This document shows, piece by piece, positions 1,965 through 43,044 of a stretch of DNA of 43,116 bases (within the stretch, counting starts at the first letter, position 1; each line of letters starts with the position of its first letter). The position numbers and the translations under genes are program-made. This stretch comes from a virus: the IMG/VR virus record IMGVR_UViG_3300030444_000009, one strand, 5' to 3'. The notes under the pieces are model-generated. The model was given only the letters and a program-made list of their open reading frames with translations, ran no database searches and was not told where the DNA came from.

Positions 1965-3352
1965 TTTTGAGCACTGTATATACATTCCAGACATTTCAGC
2001 AGGCGCAAGCCGCCGGGGAACAGCCTGATTTCATCCGGCGGTTCGTGCAGCAGCACTGCGCTTCCGGGCCTTACAAGATGGCTCTGGACGCCGACCTGTA
2101 CGATGCCCAGAAAAACCCGGGCGCTGAACGCTTCGCACAGACTTACGCTTTGATGCTGAAACGCCTGTCCAAAAACACCAAGCCGGACACCCCACACCCC
2201 GATATGGTCAAGAGCAATCTTTTCCGGAGGCTCAACAAACAGCGGGCGACCTACTCCCTCGGCAACGGCGTGGTCTTTGCGGACGATGGCGTGGACAAGG
2301 AAAGGCTGGGGCAGAACTTTGACGAGCAGATCCAGAAGGCCGGATATTTCGCCCTGATCCACGGTGAGAGCTTCGGATTTTGGAACAACGACCATCTGGT
2401 GGTTTTCAAGCTGACCGAGTTTGCTCCCCTGTACGATGAAAAGACAGGCCTTTTGCAGGCAGGCGTGCGCTTCTGGCGACTGAACCCAGACACGGATATA
2501 CACTACATCCTGTACGAGCTGGACGGCTTTACCGAGTACACGGAAAGCCGAATCGGCAATGCGATAAAGGAGGCCGTGCCGAAGCAGGCATACAAGAGCG
2601 TGACCGTCACCACACCCGGCGGCGGGCTGGAAAGCATAGAAGGCGAAAACTACGGTGCTCTTCCCATTGTGCCGCTGTGGGGCTCAGACCTGCACCAGAG
2701 CACCCTTGTTGGGCTGAAAGCCTACATTGACAACACCGATCTGGTGATGTCTGGCTTCTGCAATGACCTGCAGGACTGCGCGCAGATTTACTGGCTTTGC
2801 GAGAACTTCAACGGAATGACCGATGATGAACTTGTGGAGTACCTCACCAAGCTGAATCTGTACCACATTGCAGGTGCAGACACCAGCGAGGGCGGCAAGA
2901 TCACCCCCTACACCACCGAGATTCCTGTGAATGCTCGGCAGACTCTTTTGGAGCTGCTACACACCCGGGTGTATGAGGACTTCGGCGGTCTGGATGTGCA
3001 CTGTGTCAGCGCAGACAGCACCAACGACCATCTGGATGCAGCCTATGAACCGCTGAACCAGAACGCGGACGACTTCGAGGCTCAGATCAAGCCGTTCATC
3101 CGGCAGATCTGCGCACTGGCTGGCTTTGACAATGCTATGCCGACATTCAACCGCAGCAAGATCACCAACACAGCTGAGCAGGTCGAAATGGTGATTTCTG
3201 AGGCGCCGATCATCGGGCAGGACATGGCCATTGACCTGCTGCCCAACCTGACCCCGGAGCAGAAGGAACAGGCAAAGTCCGCGCTGATGGCAGAGAGCGC
3301 AACGCGGGAGACCACAGACGAGGACGAGGAGGACAACGAGGATGAAAACTGA
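1961..3352 (+). CDS. Portal protein (SPP1 gp6-like size and position)
   Basis: 463 aa immediately after terL (TTGA start/stop overlap, GAGGA RBS), acidic C-terminus DEDEEDNEDEN, followed by a MuF-like gene. Confidence 0.8.
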   Translation: MILSTVYTFQTFQQAQAAGEQPDFIRRFVQQHCASGPYKMALDADLYDAQKNPGAERFAQTYALMLKRLSKNTKPDTPHPDMVKSNLFRRLNKQRATYSLGNGVVFADDGVDKERLGQNFDEQIQKAGYFALIHGESFGFWNNDHLVVFKLTEFAPLYDEKTGLLQAGVRFWRLNPDTDIHYILYELDGFTEYTESRIGNAIKEAVPKQAYKSVTVTTPGGGLESIEGENYGALPIVPLWGSDLHQSTLVGLKAYIDNTDLVMSGFCNDLQDCAQIYWLCENFNGMTDDELVEYLTKLNLYHIAGADTSEGGKITPYTTEIPVNARQTLLELLHTRVYEDFGGLDVHCVSADSTNDHLDAAYEPLNQNADDFEAQIKPFIRQICALAGFDNAMPTFNRSKITNTAEQVEMVISEAPIIGQDMAIDLLPNLTPEQKEQAKSALMAESATRETTDEDEEDNEDEN

Positions 3353-3359
3353 TAAAAGG

Positions 3360-3521
3360 ATGAAAATATTTTTCTGGATTTTCTTTGGCGTGTGCGTTGC
3401 GTTTATCATTGGAAGCGCAATTTTAAACGCCGTTTTAGCTGTTTACTACGTCAAAGGCGTTTTTAGCGCAGATATGCCTGAATGGGCTAAATGGGCGCTT
3501 GTGACTATTGCAGCGTCATGA
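3360..3521 (+). CDS. Small hydrophobic membrane protein (53 aa)
   Basis: My own translation: MKIFFWIFFGVCVAFIIGSAILNAVLAVYYVKGVFSADMPEWAKWALVTIAAS. The stop overlaps the next ATG (ATGA). Below the 60-aa cutoff of the ORF track. Confidence 0.45.
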   Translation: MKIFFWIFFGVCVAFIIGSAILNAVLAVYYVKGVFSADMPEWAKWALVTIAAS

Positions 3522-4555
3522 AACAAACTGACCTTGACCGCATCTCCACCCGGCAGCTGAACAGGCTGCGCCGCCGCATTTTGCGGGTATACGGAACAGC
3601 CCGCCGGGAGATGACCGAGCAGCTGACCGAGTTTCTGGAGCATTACCAGAAGCTGGACGCATACAAGCGCACGCAGCTGGAAGCTGGGAAGATCACCGAG
3701 AGCGACTACCGCACATGGCTGCGCAATCAGGTGTTTCAGTCCGAACTGATGCACCAGAAGCTGGACAACATCACCCAGACGTGCACCACAGCCCAGCAGA
3801 CGGCGTACAAGCTGGCGCGTGATGAACAGTATGATATATTTGCCCTTGGCGCAAACTGGGCGTTCTACGAACTGGAACAGGCCGCAGGCGTGTCGTTCGG
3901 TCTGACCTTGTACAACACCGAGGCGGTCAAGCGCCTGCTGCTGGAAAACCCCAAACTTGTGCCAAACAAGCGCATCAAGAGCGAGAGCAACAAAACCTAC
4001 GACGCCCGGGTGTTCAACCGGTACGTTACAAAAGGCATCATACAGGGCAAAAACGTCCATGACATTGCGGTGCAGGCTGTGCAGGGCATGGCAGACACGG
4101 AAGTGCACTGGGCGATGAACAACGCTATCACAGCCCTTACAGGCGCCCAAAACGCCGGAACGATGCAGCAGCTCCGCAATGCTCAGGCGCTTGGCATTGA
4201 GGTGCAAAAGCGGTGGAACAGCACTCTGGACTACCGCACCCGCGAGACGCACCGCCTGCTGGATCAGGAGACCGCAGACCTTAACGAGCCGTTTAAGGTG
4301 CAGGGCTATGAGATCATGTACCCGGGAGACCCCAACGCCGCCCCGGAAATGGTCTATCACTGCCGCTGCAAAGTGACCGGGGCGCTTGTAAAGTACCCAC
4401 GGCAGAACTCACAGCGGCGGGACAACACTACAAAAGAGGTCACATCTGACCTAACCTATACCGAGTGGTACAAGGCAAAGGGTGGCACGGAAGCCGAACA
4501 GATGTGGTGGGCAAAAGAGCGAAAACGCAGAAAGGAGAGTTCCAAAAATGAGTAA
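3518..4555 (+). CDS. Head morphogenesis protein, Phage_Mu_F / SPP1 gp7 family
   Basis: STLDYRTRETHRLLDQE and YPGDPNAAPEMVYHCRCKV motifs typical of the MuF domain; located after the portal. Start ATG 3518 is coupled to the upstream small ORF; track ORF starts at 3491. Confidence 0.8.
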   Translation: MKQTDLDRISTRQLNRLRRRILRVYGTARREMTEQLTEFLEHYQKLDAYKRTQLEAGKITESDYRTWLRNQVFQSELMHQKLDNITQTCTTAQQTAYKLARDEQYDIFALGANWAFYELEQAAGVSFGLTLYNTEAVKRLLLENPKLVPNKRIKSESNKTYDARVFNRYVTKGIIQGKNVHDIAVQAVQGMADTEVHWAMNNAITALTGAQNAGTMQQLRNAQALGIEVQKRWNSTLDYRTRETHRLLDQETADLNEPFKVQGYEIMYPGDPNAAPEMVYHCRCKVTGALVKYPRQNSQRRDNTTKEVTSDLTYTEWYKAKGGTEAEQMWWAKERKRRKESSKNE

Positions 4556-6453: not shown

Positions 6454-6669
6454 ATGGATTTGGAGAAAATGTTCAAAACACCAAAAGAAAAGTTCCTGCC
6501 CGATGATGTGAAAACTGCGCACTGCGAGGCAGAAGACCTTTTCCTTGAACTTGCAACGCAGCTTGACGCGCTTCCTGAAAGCCGAGAAAAAAGTCTGTGC
6601 ATGACAAAATTACAGGAAGCGAAGTTTTGGGCGGTCGAATGTATCACCAAAGTTGCACGCAAAAACTAA
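6454..6669 (+). CDS. Hypothetical small protein (71 aa)
   Basis: ORF with tight spacing to the previous gene, followed by a terminator. Confidence 0.5.
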   Translation: MDLEKMFKTPKEKFLPDDVKTAHCEAEDLFLELATQLDALPESREKSLCMTKLQEAKFWAVECITKVARKN

Positions 6670-6675
6670 ATACTC

Positions 6676-6708
6676 AGCGGTTGGCGCACAGCGTCAGCCG
6701 CTTTTTTA
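6676..6708 (+). terminator. Rho-independent terminator
   Basis: AGCGGTTGGCGC-ACA-GCGTCAGCCGCT hairpin followed by TTTTTT. Confidence 0.7.
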
Positions 6709-6709
6709 T

Positions 6710-6785
6710 GCCGTTTTCGCACAACTGGCAGTGCTCCCGGCTCATAACCGGGTAGTTGCAGGTTCGAGCCCTGCAAGCGGCACCA
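6710..6785 (+). tRNA. tRNA with CAT anticodon (Met elongator-type or Ile2-lysidine type), CCA encoded
   Basis: Hand-folded: acceptor GCCGTTT/AAGCGGC; D arm GCAC-AACTGGCA-GTGC; anticodon arm CCCGG-CTCATAA-CCGGG; variable TAGTT; T arm GCAGG-TTCGAGC-CCTGC; discriminator A; CCA. Confidence 0.85.
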
Positions 6786-16359: not shown

Positions 16360-16929
16360 ATGGGTTATCAGAAACAGAATTTCGTTTCAGGTCAGGTGCT
16401 GAACAGCGCTCACCTGAACCACATCGAGAACGGCATTGTGGAGGTCGAATCTTCCGTATCCACTTCCATTGTGGACAAAGTCACAAAGGAAGAGCTTAAA
16501 AACACGATCGACCCCACCCTCTCCGTCGAGGGTAAGGCGGCGGATGCAAAGGCTACTGGTGACGCGGTTCAGGGCGTAAAGGATGACCTTGCCGCCGAGA
16601 CCGCTCGCGCGGAAACAGCGGAAAAAGCCAACGCGGACAACATCGCGGCTGAGGTCAAGCGCGCACAAGCCGCCGAAAGCGCCCTATCCACTAAAATCAC
16701 GGAGGAAACGGAGCGGGCAAAGGCGGCTGAACAGGAGAACGCGGAAGGAATTGCCGCCGAAGCATCCCGCGCCAAGGGTGAGGAGCAGCGCTTGGACACT
16801 GCCATTGCCGCCGAAAAGACCCGCGCGGAACAGGCAGAGCAAGCGCTGGATGCGCGCACCGCAGCTCTCGAATCCTGCGGATTTGTCGTGGTTGACGGCA
16901 AAGTCTGCATGAAATATGTTAAATCCTGA
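16360..16929 (+). CDS. Tail fibre protein (coiled-coil shaft)
   Basis: N-terminal FVSGQVLNSAHLNHIENGI motif common in phage fibres, then a long Ala/Glu/Lys-rich coiled coil. Confidence 0.65.
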   Translation: MGYQKQNFVSGQVLNSAHLNHIENGIVEVESSVSTSIVDKVTKEELKNTIDPTLSVEGKAADAKATGDAVQGVKDDLAAETARAETAEKANADNIAAEVKRAQAAESALSTKITEETERAKAAEQENAEGIAAEASRAKGEEQRLDTAIAAEKTRAEQAEQALDARTAALESCGFVVVDGKVCMKYVKS

Positions 16930-16943
16930 AAGGAGCAAAACAC

Positions 16944-18197
16944 ATGGCTGAAACTATGGTAACCGATCCGGTCTATCTGGATCAGACCGCAAAAGACAAC
17001 GGCAGAAAGCTTGACCAGATGACCGCCGCCCTGCTGGGTATGTCCAGCTCGCTGGGCGTGATTGCGCGGGCACAGACCGGCGTGGTGGAGGAGATGGACT
17101 ACAACGCCATCAAGTCGGTGGTGGCTGCCGGTAATGCACCGGCGGTTTTCCCGGTTGGCACGCAGCTTGTCAACACCTACACCGGCAAGGACGGCAAAGC
17201 CTACGACTGCCCGTGGGACGTAGTGAAGTCGGACGATACCGCAGAGGGTGAGACCGGCACCACCGCGCCTGCAATGGTGCTGCAGATGCACTACGCATCT
17301 CTGGAGGATATCCAGTTTTCTGAGTATCAGGCTTTTTATGTGGTGCAAGAATCCGGCCTTGCTGCTGGTACCTACAACGTCAAGATGGGTCTGGACTGGG
17401 GCACCAACGTCAAAAACGGCACTGTCTATCAGTTCACGTTGACCAAGAACGCCCCCGCAGGCGCACGCCTGACCGGCTTCTACAACGCCCCGGATACCGC
17501 ATCCACCAACTGGAAGGTGTACGTCTATAAGGATCAGCAGAAGTCTGAACTGCTGGAGACCTGCAACGTCTCTGCTGGCAGTGCGGGCATGAACCTCGGC
17601 ACGTTTTTGGCTAAGCCCAACGGCAACCTGAACGGCTTGCATCCGGTTAGCTACGGCGACAACCGGTGGTGGAAGTCCGCGTATCGTCAGTACCTCAACA
17701 GCGATGCACCCGCTAAAGAGTGGTGGGCTCCGCAGGACGAGTGGGACATGAAACCCGATCAGGCAGACACCGTGCCCGGCTTCCTTGCGGGCTTCTCTGA
17801 TGACTTCAAGGCTGCCCTGACCCGCGTGAAGGTCGTGACCTACGGCAACACCGTCACCGATGACGGCAGCGCTGTGGTGACCTATGACAAAATCTTCCTG
17901 CCCTCGCTGGAGGAGATCTACTGTTCTCCGCAGGTCAGTGGCGAGGGTACATACTGGCCGTACTGGAAGGAGCGCACCGGCGCAAAGACCCCGCAGGCTC
18001 TGTGGCAGACCTACCCGCTGCGTATCACCCGCGACCTTGCACAGCGCACTGTGGGCCGCGGTGTGCGGCTGCGCTCTGCGTTTCGTGGCTCCGGCGGCAA
18101 TGCCTTCACCGTGAACTCCATCGGCTACGTCGGCCACTGGCACGCGGTCACCGCGACTCGCTGCGCCCCGGCTTGCGAAATGACCAATCTTAAATAA
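16944..18197 (+). CDS. DGR target protein: receptor-binding tail protein with a C-terminal variable region
   Basis: 417 aa. The last ~45 codons are the VR copy of the downstream template repeat; ends ...RCAPACEMTNLK. Confidence 0.85.
   Translation: MAETMVTDPVYLDQTAKDNGRKLDQMTAALLGMSSSLGVIARAQTGVVEEMDYNAIKSVVAAGNAPAVFPVGTQLVNTYTGKDGKAYDCPWDVVKSDDTAEGETGTTAPAMVLQMHYASLEDIQFSEYQAFYVVQESGLAAGTYNVKMGLDWGTNVKNGTVYQFTLTKNAPAGARLTGFYNAPDTASTNWKVYVYKDQQKSELLETCNVSAGSAGMNLGTFLAKPNGNLNGLHPVSYGDNRWWKSAYRQYLNSDAPAKEWWAPQDEWDMKPDQADTVPGFLAGFSDDFKAALTRVKVVTYGNTVTDDGSAVVTYDKIFLPSLEEIYCSPQVSGEGTYWPYWKERTGAKTPQALWQTYPLRITRDLAQRTVGRGVRLRSAFRGSGGNAFTVNSIGYVGHWHAVTATRCAPACEMTNLK
18052..18175 (+). repeat. DGR variable repeat (VR)
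   Basis: 124-bp match to 18675-18798 at constant offset 623. 19 mismatches, 18 of them opposite TR adenines. Confidence 0.9.
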
Positions 18198-18198
18198 T

Positions 18199-18222
18199 CA
18201 CCGGGCAATCCCTTGCCCGGTG
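18199..18222 (+). promoter_or_regulatory. Perfect 10-bp GC-rich hairpin with 4-nt loop just 3' of the VR and target stop (DGR target-recognition hairpin candidate)
   Basis: CACCGGGCAA-TCCC-TTGCCCGGTG, with no T-run after it. Confidence 0.6.
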
Positions 18223-18241
18223 AGAAAGTGAGTGCTATCCC

Positions 18242-18652
18242 ATGGCAATGCGTAAAGACCAGATACCGGACAATAAATTCACGCTGCCGCTTGACGCGCG
18301 TGAGCTGGCACTGTATACCAGACAGATCACCAAAAACGCGAAAGTGTTTGACCTCGAAATTGACGCAAGCCTTCCCGGTCAACTGCGCGCTACGGCAGAC
18401 CGGATATTTTTTGATATCTTCGGAGCAAACGACCTCCGGCTGGACAAGCCGAACGAAAGAGAGGAGCGCTTTAAGCTTCAAAGACAAGCTGTCCGGCTGT
18501 GCACCGTCCTTTTGGCGGAGATAGACATGGCGAAAGCCAGCTATCACCTTTCCGGCAAACGGTGCTCTTTCTGGGGCAACACTGTGCGCGATATCCGGCA
18601 GCGTTGCCGGGACTGGCACGAGAGTGATGCAAAGCGTGCAAAAGCGCTTTGA
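18242..18652 (+). CDS. avd: Accessory variability determinant (Avd-like helical bundle protein)
   Basis: 136 aa, basic and predicted helical, located between VR and TR as in BPP-1-type DGRs. Confidence 0.6.
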   Translation: MAMRKDQIPDNKFTLPLDARELALYTRQITKNAKVFDLEIDASLPGQLRATADRIFFDIFGANDLRLDKPNEREERFKLQRQAVRLCTVLLAEIDMAKASYHLSGKRCSFWGNTVRDIRQRCRDWHESDAKRAKAL

Positions 18653-18674
18653 CATAAAAATGGCTGTAGGCTAA

Positions 18675-18798
18675 TGGGCCGCAATGTGCGGCTGCGCTCT
18701 GCGAATCGTGGCAACGGCAACAATGCCTTCAACGTGAACTCCAGCGGCAACGTCAACAACTGGAACGCGATCAACGCGAATCGCTGCGCCCCGGATTG
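18675..18798 (+). repeat. DGR template repeat (TR), non-coding template RNA
   Basis: Adenine-rich (AAC/AAT at the variable codons) copy of the VR. Reads GRNVRLRSANRGNGNNAFNVNSSGNVNNWNAINANRCAPD in the VR frame but has no RBS or gene context. Confidence 0.9.
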
Positions 18799-18954
18799 GA
18801 CGGCAGCACGCCCACAAAAGCCCCTGCATAGCAGAGGCCGGGCAAAAACTGCCGTGCAAGGAGCCGAGTGCCATGTCTGTCCTCTGGCAGACGAACAATA
18901 TCAGCCGGACGTGGCCACCCTGCGGGGTGTTGACCGCTATCACCCGGCAGATCC

Positions 18955-20019
18955 TTGCGAGGAGAGCTGAAAAAATCAGTGCAAGAAGAAGAAATAATAA
19001 TCGGGTTCGATGCCCTGTATAATTCCGAGGGCAAGTGCGCCAAAGGCGTGTGCCGCAAGGCAAGCGTTGGACGGTTTCACCTGTTTCGGATGGACGAGAT
19101 CCTGAAACTCCAAAAGGAGCTCGCGACAGGTACATACAAGGCACGGCCAACAATCAAAGTTAGAATCACCTATCCCAAGCCCCGCACAGCGGTTGCGAAT
19201 GGCTTTCGGGATAGGGTATACCAGCGCTCTCTCAACGACAATGCTGTTTATCCAGCAATGACACGGAGCTTCATCCGGCAAAACGCGGCCTGTCAGACCG
19301 GCAAAGGTACCGACTGGGCGCGCAAGCAGGTCAAGCTCATGATGGAGCGCGAATACCGGCAGCACGGCGCTGATGGCTATGTGCTGTTGGTAGATATCCG
19401 GCACTATTACGACACGATGCCCCATGACGTGGCAAACCGCTGCTTTGAGCGGCATCTGCCGCCAAGTGTGCATAACCGCGTGCGTGAGGTTCTGGATCGT
19501 CAATATACCGGCGAGGCCGGTTATAATCCGGGCAGCCAGATGGTGCAGCTTGCCGGGATCTCGGTGCCCGACCCCATAGATCACTACATCAAGGAGCGCC
19601 TGCGGGCGAAAAAGTACGTCCGTTTTATGGATGATAGCCTCATCATCCACCACGACAAGGCACGGCTTGAGGAGTGGCGGGAGGCGATCCGCGCCCGGTA
19701 CGCTGCCGATGGCATGGAGCTGCACCCGACCAAGACCAAGATCGTCAGGCTAAAGGATGGATTCCGTTTTCTAGGTTTCATCTACCGCTTGACCCCGGCG
19801 GGCAAGGTCGTTATGACCGTTGACCCGCAGAATGTCAAGGCCGAGCGCAAGCGCCTGTTTCGGCTTGCCCAGCTCATCAAGGCAGGAGAGAAACCGGCAT
19901 CTGCCCTGTATGAGCAGTATGGATCATGGAAAGCCCATGCCGCTAAAGGCAACTCGCAGCAGCTGCTGCAGCGCATGGATCAATACGTTAAAACTCTGCT
20001 GGAGGGGATAACTACATGA
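18955..20019 (+). CDS. DGR reverse transcriptase
   Basis: YVRFMDDSLII (YxDD box), GSQMVQLAGI motif, LLVDIRHYYDTM. 354 aa, positioned after the TR. Exact start uncertain (TTG 18955 or GTG 18979). Confidence 0.85.
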   Translation: MRGELKKSVQEEEIIIGFDALYNSEGKCAKGVCRKASVGRFHLFRMDEILKLQKELATGTYKARPTIKVRITYPKPRTAVANGFRDRVYQRSLNDNAVYPAMTRSFIRQNAACQTGKGTDWARKQVKLMMEREYRQHGADGYVLLVDIRHYYDTMPHDVANRCFERHLPPSVHNRVREVLDRQYTGEAGYNPGSQMVQLAGISVPDPIDHYIKERLRAKKYVRFMDDSLIIHHDKARLEEWREAIRARYAADGMELHPTKTKIVRLKDGFRFLGFIYRLTPAGKVVMTVDPQNVKAERKRLFRLAQLIKAGEKPASALYEQYGSWKAHAAKGNSQQLLQRMDQYVKTLLEGITT

Positions 20020-20180
20020 AAATTGTTCACAACACTGGCGACATCAAGACCGCCGCCGAAAACGAAAACCGGGACGCGGATTTGGCACAGATCGCGTCTA
20101 TGGTGGACTTCCTGTGCATTCTGGCCGATGTGCCCATTGAGGACGAGGCTGCAGACAAGGAGGGCATGAGCCATGAGTGA
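20016..20180 (+). CDS. Hypothetical small acidic protein (54 aa)
   Basis: My own translation: MKIVHNTGDIKTAAENENRDADLAQIASMVDFLCILADVPIEDEAADKEGMSHE. ATGA coupling to the RT stop. Confidence 0.4.
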   Translation: MKIVHNTGDIKTAAENENRDADLAQIASMVDFLCILADVPIEDEAADKEGMSHE

Positions 20181-22251: not shown

Positions 22252-22326
22252 AAAAAATCCCCCACTTTGCCTACAAAGCACCCCGCGTGGCACGCAGGGC
22301 TTCGGCAAAGCAGGGGATTTTTTTGT
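22252..22326. terminator. Long hairpin terminator downstream of the minus-strand cassette
   Basis: AAAAAATCCCC-A-CTTTGCC...GGCAAAG-C-AGGGGATTTTTTT. Confidence 0.6.
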
Positions 22327-42540: not shown

Positions 42541-42677
42541 GCCGTTATAGCTCAACTGGCAGAGCGCCGCCCATTTAAGGCGGGACAACGCTGGTGACAC
42601 ATCTCGGACATCACTGCGCACTTAACCAATGCGCATATACAGACTTGATGGTGCCGGTTCGAATCCGGTTAACGGCT
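42541..42677 (+). tRNA. tRNA-like gene with canonical acceptor, D and T arms but a 69-nt insertion at the variable-region position and an atypical anticodon loop CATTTAA
   Basis: GCCGTTA/TAACGGC (7/7); D arm GCTC-AACTGGCA-GAGC; CCGCC-CATTTAA-GGCGG; insert 42584-42652; T arm GCCGG-TTCGAAT-CCGGT. Confidence 0.5.
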
Positions 42678-42968: not shown

Positions 42969-43044
42969 ATTCCCGTAGTTCAAGTGATGGAACAGCGGTC
43001 TCCAAAACCGCAGGCTGCAGGTTTGAGCCCTGCCGGGAATGCCA
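42969..43044 (+). tRNA. tRNA-Trp (CCA anticodon), CCA end encoded
   Basis: Acceptor ATTCCCG/CGGGAAT; D arm GTTC-AAGTGATG-GAAC; anticodon arm GCGGT-CTCCAAA-ACCGC; variable AGGCT; T arm GCAGG-TTTGAGC-CCTGC; discriminator G; CCA. Confidence 0.85.

Follow-up and report, generated by a model that had tools for sequence, protein, structure and literature searches.

Our results indicate that positions 16,944–20,019 of the virus record IMGVR_UViG_3300030444_000009 of IMG/VR, the whole of whose 43,116 nt is called the window below, very probably (we put it at about 0.93) hold a complete diversity-generating retroelement (DGR). Its parts are arranged in the order target gene with its variable repeat (VR), avd-like accessory gene, template repeat (TR) and reverse transcriptase (RT) gene. 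A first-pass annotation, made by a model from the sequence alone, had claimed such a complete element, and this claim is upheld, every component that it named being present and DGR-like in its behaviour. The DGR is located at the tail-module end of a temperate Faecalibacterium prausnitzii phage. The features on which the argument relies are the following, a distant cassette used for comparison being given last (IMH, initiation of mutagenic homing).

16944–18197 (+), DGR target gene, 417 aa, the C-terminal DUF6273 / C-type-lectin-like domain of which carries the VR
18052–18175 (+), VR, with its diversified part at 18060–18157
18158–18175 (+), IMH-like constant 3' end of the VR, TCGCTGCGCCCCGGCTTG, without variation in relatives
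18198–18223 (+), perfect hairpin or cruciform, with an 11-bp GC-rich stem and a 4-nt loop, TCCC
18242–18652 (+), avd-like accessory gene, 136 aa, isoelectric point 9.47, predicted four-helix protein
18675–18798 (+), TR, with its IMH*-like end at 18781–18798
18799–18978 (+), TR–RT spacer, presumed from the BPP-1 literature to correspond to the structured 3' portion of the DGR RNA
18979–20019 (+), DGR RT gene, 346 aa from GTG 18979 (354 aa from the alternative TTG 18955)
MT835491.1 (L001), 36501–44616, unverified human fecal phage scaffold, VR at ~3336–3462 and TR at ~3994–4117

The repeats and their diversification across the lineage

TR and VR form a repeat of 124 nt with an offset of 623 and 85% identity. 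The repeat finder and the pairwise alignment return exactly the coordinates, length and offset of the first-pass annotation, and its tally of mismatches is reproduced by a base-by-base count. Among 19 mismatches, 18 are on TR adenines (A>G 7, A>C 7 and A>T 4 in the window VR), 18 of the 29 TR adenines being substituted in the VR and 11 unchanged. The sole non-adenine mismatch is a G>T change (TR 18744, VR 18121).

The VR encodes residues 370–411 of the 417-aa target. When the TR is read in the target frame, its variable part holds 13 AAY codons, one ATC and one AGC, and all 18 adenine mismatches fall at codon positions 1 or 2. The TR and VR peptides had thus been read correctly, with the AAY codons as the diversified positions. 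As the 28 variable TR adenines are placed at positions 1 or 2 of these codons, about 3.1e16 protein variants are possible and no stop codon can be reached. No second VR was found in the window by a scan with the TR degenerate at every A, at full length and in halves; only that of the target gene was recovered.

The behaviour of the repeats was then compared across related contigs, as a population-level proxy for a read pileup. IMG/VR was scanned with the first 66 nt of the TR, each A being replaced by N, and 54 loci were returned, most of them with two matches spaced 623 or 626 nt. Sorting of the repeat copies by their flanks gave 42 VR copies, 41 of which are distinct. Of the 1176 cells that make up the 28 adenine columns upstream of the GC-rich end, 629 carry a substitution (53%), the base found at these columns being A in 47%, G in 30%, T in 15% and C in 8%. 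The 95 non-adenine columns hold 3990 cells, of which only 8 differ (0.2%), and variation in the 42 related VRs is otherwise restricted to the TR-adenine columns. The adenine of the AGC codon (TR 18743) does not vary in them.

These results, 53% against 0.2%, show that the lineage diversifies exactly as predicted for a DGR. Far from being monomorphic, the VR varies among relatives, and the mutual distinctness of 41 of the 42 VRs points to frequent activity in the lineage. In 25 related loci, the TR is the same as that of the window, which is the lineage consensus. The level of VR substitution is close to the 52% of template adenines at which bRT(-Avd), bRT being the Bordetella phage RT, misincorporates in vitro, the VR data having passed through selection.

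One of the 18 adenine mismatches has to be set apart. Their count stands, but, as a correction to the first-pass annotation, a mutagenic origin does not hold for the A/C mismatch at TR 18795 and VR 18172. Nearly all related TRs have A at this position and 39 of the 42 related VRs have C, and the distant cassette L001, the proteins of which are 41–49% identical, shows the same CCGG[C/A]TTG difference between VR and TR. Since C/A is fixed across relatives and in L001, it is a constant-segment difference of the IMH/IMH* type rather than a product of mutagenesis, and 17 mismatches are attributable to the latter.

It could be argued that the repeat is an ordinary duplication that diverged randomly beside an unrelated group II intron, retron or defence RT. 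This is practically untenable, as random divergence can give neither 18 of 19 mismatches on adenines (hypergeometric P = 2.9e-13 for at least 18 of 19 on the 29 TR adenines) nor 629 changed adenine cells against 8 changed non-adenine cells in relatives. The nature of the RT, which also bears on this point, is considered below.

Proteins and cis elements of the cassette

The RT gene more likely starts at GTG 18979, which has AGGAG upstream and is the start used in public gene calls; the protein is then of 346 aa and the spacer of 180 nt. The 354 aa and 156-nt spacer of the first-pass annotation correspond to TTG 18955, a start without a ribosome-binding site, and are the less likely values. The protein matches RVT_1 (Pfam) and PHROG 1423 (E 4e-68), and its best match among solved structures is 8ub7_A (E 1.4e-15, residues 21–343). 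The latter was taken as bRT, its R74, I181 and Q187 being at the published bRT positions; the code 8ub7 is absent from the bRT–Avd structure preprint. Next among the PDB matches comes a group II maturase, which covers only part of the protein (E 5e-7), and no retron RT is found among the PDB matches listed. The equivalent of bRT R74 (in PKPR) and the catalytic box are conserved, the latter as FMDD here and as YMDD in most relatives.

When compared with deposited phages, the RT finds relatives in 86 records, none of them above 48.5% identity. These include Roseburia phage Shimadzu, Faecalibacterium phages Toutatis, Brigit and Lelie, Vibrio VP585 and, further, Bordetella phages, Bacteroides phages and crAss-like phages, mostly phage groups that bear DGRs. 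The exact RT sequence is annotated in F. prausnitzii genomes and is present on at least 1000 contigs of up to 250 kb. The best NCBIfam score of the RT is that of the group II intron RT/maturase model, TIGR04416, and weak Drt matches are also found, which would fit an unrelated RT beside an ordinary duplication. However, the NCBIfam scores are far under the curated cut-offs (74 bits against 300 for TIGR04416), and no intron or retron RNA was detected by Rfam, either at gathering scores in the whole window or at E<=1 in 18000–20100. Taken with the adenine bias, the bRT match and the lineage VR data, the lack of such an RNA refutes the ordinary duplication. With bRT as its best structure match and relatives mostly from DGR-bearing phages, the RT would thus belong, as first annotated, with the DGR RTs and not with those of group II introns, retrons or defence systems.

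The open reading frame (ORF) that occupies the avd position ends 22 nt before the TR and encodes a protein with 26 K+R and 20 D+E. It is matched over residues 3–135 by PHROG 3206, 'Avd protein of DGR' (E 1.3e-7), and a near-identical copy is present in nr as 'Avd-like-generating retroelement protein'. Its L001 homologue is 41% identical and at the equivalent position; the family is small (23 clusters). The AlphaFold (AF2) model consists of four helices, with a mean predicted local distance difference test (pLDDT) score of 66.7, and its top Foldseek matches are 2gsc and 2rld, both of five chains (probability 0.94–0.99, E 0.1–0.4, template-modelling (TM) score 0.44–0.66). 2rld is of the S23-ribosomal-protein family, and Avd has been described as an S23-like pentamer. 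Membership of the canonical Avd, PF05635 or TIGR-type families was considered and dropped, there being no sequence or profile match. The earlier description of a basic helical protein at the Avd position is therefore borne out by the basic four-helix character and by PHROG 3206, but not by the Avd-type models of Pfam and NCBIfam, and we call the 136-aa protein, from its profile match and predicted fold, a putative divergent Avd-like protein.

The target protein carries Pfam DUF6273 at residues 234–348 (E 7e-11, 42.7 bits against a gathering score of 23.5). An exhaustive search with its C-terminal half gave 1476 representative proteins, in which the domain is nearly always at the extreme C-terminus; these DUF6273-type relatives range from 133 to 1568 aa. 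They share the scaffold VRLRSA..R......W.V..SG.V......A....R.APAC, interleaved with the variable codons. The exact target is present in nr as 'MAG TPA: hypothetical protein [Caudoviricetes sp.]'. An AF2 model built with 57 diverse full-length relatives (mean pLDDT 91.8, predicted TM score 0.87) is composed of an N-terminal helix, a beta-rich domain (~74–221) and an alpha/beta domain (~225–417), the last strands of which bear the VR.

This C-terminal domain resembles the N-terminal domain of 9qa6, both by profile (E 2.5e-6) and as the top Foldseek match (E 4.4e-6). The single sequence of the target has no match among solved structures at E<=10, and only the profile of diverse relatives reached 9qa6. 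The authors of 9qa6 describe this domain as a C-type-lectin-like core that resembles Legionella Lcl's C-terminal domain, 8Q4E; 8q4e, CD94 and CD23 are only weak local Foldseek matches of the target. The structure prediction and the 9qa6 match thus agree with the C-type-lectin-like fold anticipated for the target C-terminus, and the VR would be displayed on the C-terminal part of such a domain, the link being indirect, through 9qa6 and its authors' description.

The function of the target can be approached from the same data. Its domain most likely binds a ligand on the host surface or in the environment, and its gene position and fold suggest a receptor-binding tip, as the first-pass annotation had it. 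Alternatively, the diversified protein could lie outside the tail tip and be a virion decoration or adhesin that binds ligands of the environment, for example mucus glycans, a role that has been proposed for Hoc-like DGR targets. We consider this rather unlikely. The target does match PHROG 10993, 'Hoc-like head decoration' (E 3e-13), DUF6273 / C-type-lectin-like domains also occur in non-phage proteins, for example a gut bacterial IgA peptidase, and the authors of the Faecalibacterium phage study state that the function of these targets is not known (PMC11792537). Nevertheless, the gene is at the very end of the tail module, in the order tape measure, Prophage_tail, three small ORFs (one of them coiled-coil fibre-like), target, lysis. 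Furthermore, the viral predicted structures that match the target, up to E 6e-25, include some named DUF6273, tail-collar fibre and receptor-binding protein, and the homologue in phage Pioen bears a tail-fibre-like N-terminal domain (PMC11792537). A tail-tip location of the target is in better agreement with these last points.

The cis elements around the repeats are also conserved. The segment TCGCTGCGCCCCGG[C/A]TTG is invariant across relatives, save the C/A that tells VR from TR. The hairpin starts one base past the target stop codon, folds as DNA at -14 kcal/mol (z = -5.15, none of 200 shuffles being as stable) and is kept in 37 of 39 VR 3' flanks of relatives. The sequence 3' of the TR is different, the hairpin being found only after the VR. 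As there is no T-tract on the + strand, the hairpin is not a classic terminator of the target gene, a role that was considered and rejected. In one related locus, its loop is inverted at the homologue of 18209–18212 (GGGA for TCCC) with the stem unaltered, as would be expected from flipping at a perfect palindrome.

According to the survey of Wu et al., the IMH, which starts GC-rich, delimits mutagenesis on its 3' side. In 34% of DGRs, a GC-rich inverted repeat lies after the IMH, though not after the IMH*, and BPP-1 requires this repeat to home efficiently. The GC-rich constant end and the hairpin match these published elements, and by analogy they may play a role in homing here. Directly 3' of the TR, a long-range stem is predicted in the spacer, the close relatives being too similar to show covariation in it.

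Objections, activity and erosion of the template

Five groups of observations weigh against the reading of the region as a complete DGR. (i) The signature motif of DGR RTs is [I/V/L]GxxxSQ, other RTs having QGxxxSP (PMC7826257). The strict form is not in the RT, which has PGSQMVQ at the aligned site (GYNPGSQMVQLAGI, 19546–19566), with Pro for I/V/L, Val for Ser and Gln kept; this is not QGxxxSP either. (ii) The 136-aa ORF has no Pfam or NCBIfam match, the PF05635-type four-helix-bundle families included, nor any PDB sequence match with either the single sequence or the family profile, and its model is of moderate confidence (pLDDT 66.7) with weak structural matches (E ~0.1). (iii) Foldseek gives no match of the target to Mtd or TvpA, the multi-domain model having probably lowered sensitivity. 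(iv) The predicted fold of the spacer is not significantly above shuffles (z = -1.61). (v) Some Faecalibacterium phage DGRs show no VR variation in sequencing reads in culture (PMC11792537).

With regard to the RT motif, an alternative alignment with a one-residue insertion, AGYNPGSQ, may apply. The motif G[YF]NPGSQ[MIL][IV]Q[IL]AGI is kept in each of the 114 relatives that were compared, the most distant of them at 51% identity. The residue that corresponds to bRT I181, which promotes adenine mutagenesis in bRT, is Pro in this RT clade, despite substitution at ~53% of VR adenine sites. As the clade clearly performs adenine mutagenesis, the PGSQMVQ variant is a property of a DGR sub-lineage rather than evidence against membership of the DGR RTs.

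Observation (v) bears on a different question, that of current activity, for which our confidence is lower than for the element itself. The cassette could be a DGR by descent that is silent in this genome, its VR being the frozen product of past activity. We regard this as possible, although the odds are clearly on the other side. The exact target protein, and hence the exact VR, is present on 7 contigs, which indicates that the variant is at least transiently stable, and the related phages L024 and L027, which are without avd-TR-RT, keep a diversified VR. These points, like the cultures without VR variation, would be explained by a silent element. Against it, the RT, Avd, TR (with its 29 adenines), IMH-like end and hairpin are all intact in the window, and a window TR that is the lineage consensus, among related VRs that nearly all differ, is rather what a working DGR would leave.

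How a working element would operate here can be proposed by analogy with BPP-1, from which we infer the details of the RNA, of its priming and of the RT–Avd interaction. The RT–Avd complex would bind an RNA that runs from the end of avd through the TR and the spacer. The complex would copy the TR faithfully except opposite adenines, where any nucleotide could be inserted. The cDNA would then replace the VR, with a 3' limit in the GC-rich TCGCTGCGCCCCGG, beside the fixed C/A and the downstream hairpin. All variants would fall in the C-terminal strands and loops of the DUF6273 C-type-lectin-like domain.

The TR itself shows changes in relatives. A census was taken of those TR copies, 46 in number (loci L002–L055), that have bona fide TR flanks at either end. 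While the TR of the window is intact, 19 of these 46 copies carry 1–17 substitutions. These substitutions, 119 in total, fall without exception at adenine columns, the 95 non-adenine columns having none. Of 90 comparable substitutions, 68 are to the base of the VR on the same contig; against the VR of another contig, the mean is 27 matches and the maximum 42 (5000 permutations). An eroded TR (G95, T104) is found in two IMG datasets with differing VRs, both of which have those bases, and in L055 the 5' part of the TR is converted, its 3' adenines being untouched. The RT and Avd are intact in the loci with an eroded TR. Individual contigs of this set may be affected by assembly artefacts.

An independent census is provided by a spurious 98-aa ORF (MGRNVRLRSANRGNGNN..., 18674–18970, + strand) that covers the TR and spacer in public gene calls and is a hypothetical protein in nr. 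It is an artefact of the TR copying coding sequence, and its product is on at least 1000 contigs. Its variants at adenine-containing codons are on 12, 9 and 3 contigs, against at least 1000 for the intact form.

Because the TR changes are at adenines and mostly match the contig's own VR, spontaneous mutation cannot produce the pattern, which can arise by VR-to-TR conversion or by cDNA homing into the TR with later rewriting of the VR. One possibility, to which we give slightly less than even odds, is that the TR is rewritten at adenines by the products of its own DGR, through VR-to-TR gene conversion or through occasional cDNA homing into the TR; the 5'-only conversion in L055 favours gene conversion in that case. 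According to current theory, the TR changes by ordinary mutation only and adenine loss is predicted in stable environments; TR variants have been noted in Treponema. If our proposal were true, heritable TR variants would fix chosen VR residues in the template, with a gradual loss of mutable adenines, and the decay or 'commitment' of a DGR would occur in blocks, via its own machinery or repeats, and not by slow spontaneous mutation.

The whole cassette core is absent in some relatives. L024 (~2090–3511) and L027 (~2020–3442) are syntenic, and their target gene is directly followed by orf54-XkdX-lysin, without avd-TR-RT. Their target genes are 88–92% identical and the VR is still diversified, the orphan VR of L024 having four non-adenine changes. 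The avd-TR-RT core would thus behave as a presence/absence module, as judged from these sequences. L045 (~6541–6687) holds a single repeat with a VR-type 5' flank and a TR-type 3' flank and no avd between, which is either a deletion by VR/TR recombination or an assembly collapse. On the proposal of TR rewriting given above, public assemblies seem to capture every stage: 1–17 lost adenines, VR/TR fusion and relatives without avd-TR-RT.

Genome context, significance and comparison with known systems

The window is a temperate siphovirus-like phage genome, among the genes of which are terminase, portal, major head protein, tape measure, Prophage_tail, three small ORFs, the DGR, XkdX, a GH25 lysin, an integrase on the minus strand and replication genes. 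The DGR is, as first annotated, between tail and lysis genes, at the end of the tail module and followed by XkdX and the GH25 lysin. Adjoining the target upstream, the 189-aa ORF at 16360–16929 (+) has a 54-nt-periodic, alanine/glutamate-rich repeat (families D2–D4). This suggests a coiled-coil fibre-like protein, which may connect the target to the tail.

Further RNA features are present elsewhere in the window. A strong Rfam match to DUF3800-VIII RNA is found downstream of the lysis genes at 22256–22319 (-), with 80 bits against a gathering score of 40. tRNA-Met (CAT) and tRNA-Trp (CCA) are encoded at 6710–6785 (+) and 42969–43044 (+). Finally, an Rfam tRNA match over 137 nt at 42541–42677 (+), not called by ARAGORN, may be an interrupted or degenerate tRNA. 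The TR pattern has no match in species-representative genomes, the host being assigned instead from the presence of the exact RT in F. prausnitzii genomes, and a DNA search of the deposited phage collection gave fragmentary matches only, to unannotated fecal scaffolds, to the FP_Lugh endolysin and, over 116 nt of the TR, to MT835491.

Faecalibacterium prophages have already been reported to carry DGRs with targets of the DUF6273 type, and parts of the present element carry partial DGR-type labels in public data. What is settled is the annotation: a complete DGR is present in an F. prausnitzii prophage of very high prevalence. The ~3e16 variants that it allows of a C-type-lectin-like tail-module protein bear on host range and on the phage–host dynamics of a key gut commensal. 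As a textbook element it adds little alone, and its abundance in public data makes it a convenient natural system. Three questions are open to study with it: (i) how ~50% adenine substitution is reached by DGR RTs without the canonical [I/V/L]GxxxSQ, (ii) which base or bases distinguish IMH from IMH*, the candidates here being one conserved C/A and the flanks, and (iii) natural adenine loss from templates, for which the TR-erosion pattern is worth following up.

The cassette can first be compared with that of BPP-1. In the survey of Wu et al., the order avd-TR-RT is architecture B1, which is that of the window, and the likeness to the BPP-1 gene order (mtd-avd-TR-brt) noted in the first-pass annotation is thus confirmed. 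In both systems the order is target(VR)-avd-TR-RT, a tail-module gene carries the VR at its 3' end, and the TR-to-VR differences are adenine-specific and lie on AAY codons. Both also have a GC-rich constant 3' end that differs between TR and VR, and in both a GC-rich inverted repeat with a loop of 4 nt follows the VR but not the TR; the RT can be aligned with bRT along almost its entire length, R74 and YxDD being conserved. They differ in several respects. The RT motif is PGSQMVQ here and IGSLTSQ in bRT, the accessory protein has no HMMER-detectable similarity to Avd, and the target, DUF6273 and C-type-lectin-like, has no detectable match to Mtd. In addition, the TR/VR homology extends here 18 nt past the last variable adenine, against a reported 34 bp for the BPP-1 IMH, and the host is a Gram-positive gut anaerobe.

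A second comparison is with the DGRs of the Faecalibacterium prophages Roos, Pioen, Lelie and CP11, the targets of which are DUF6273 proteins with the VR at the domain C-terminus (Microbiol Spectr 2024, PMC11792537). Two Faecalibacterium prophage DGRs have been found active in sequencing reads in the same study. The host genus, the temperate context, the DUF6273 target and the C-terminal VR are shared with the present element, as is diversification seen on comparing cognate IMG/VR genomes. However, the genomes of Roos, Pioen and Lelie are of 51.9–54.3 kb against ~43 kb here. The RT of Lelie, the only one of those phages among the RT matches listed, is 35% identical over 80% of the RT, and in the target search of the phage collection Roos, Pioen, Lelie and CP11 are not among the matches listed. 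Lelie and CP11 have two VRs each, against a single VR here. Identity of the phage with Roos, Pioen, Lelie or Mushu was rejected on protein identity.

A third comparison is with L001. It has the same order target-avd-TR-RT-orf54-XkdX, adenine-only differences between TR and VR, and the CCGG[C/A]TTG discriminator. It differs in that its target, Avd and RT are 41%, 41% and 49% identical to those of the window, in that the record is unannotated, and in that its VR has one extra codon compared to its TR, within the AAC-repeat part. L001 would thus be an independent replicate, at the level of sequence, of the architecture and hallmarks of the cassette.

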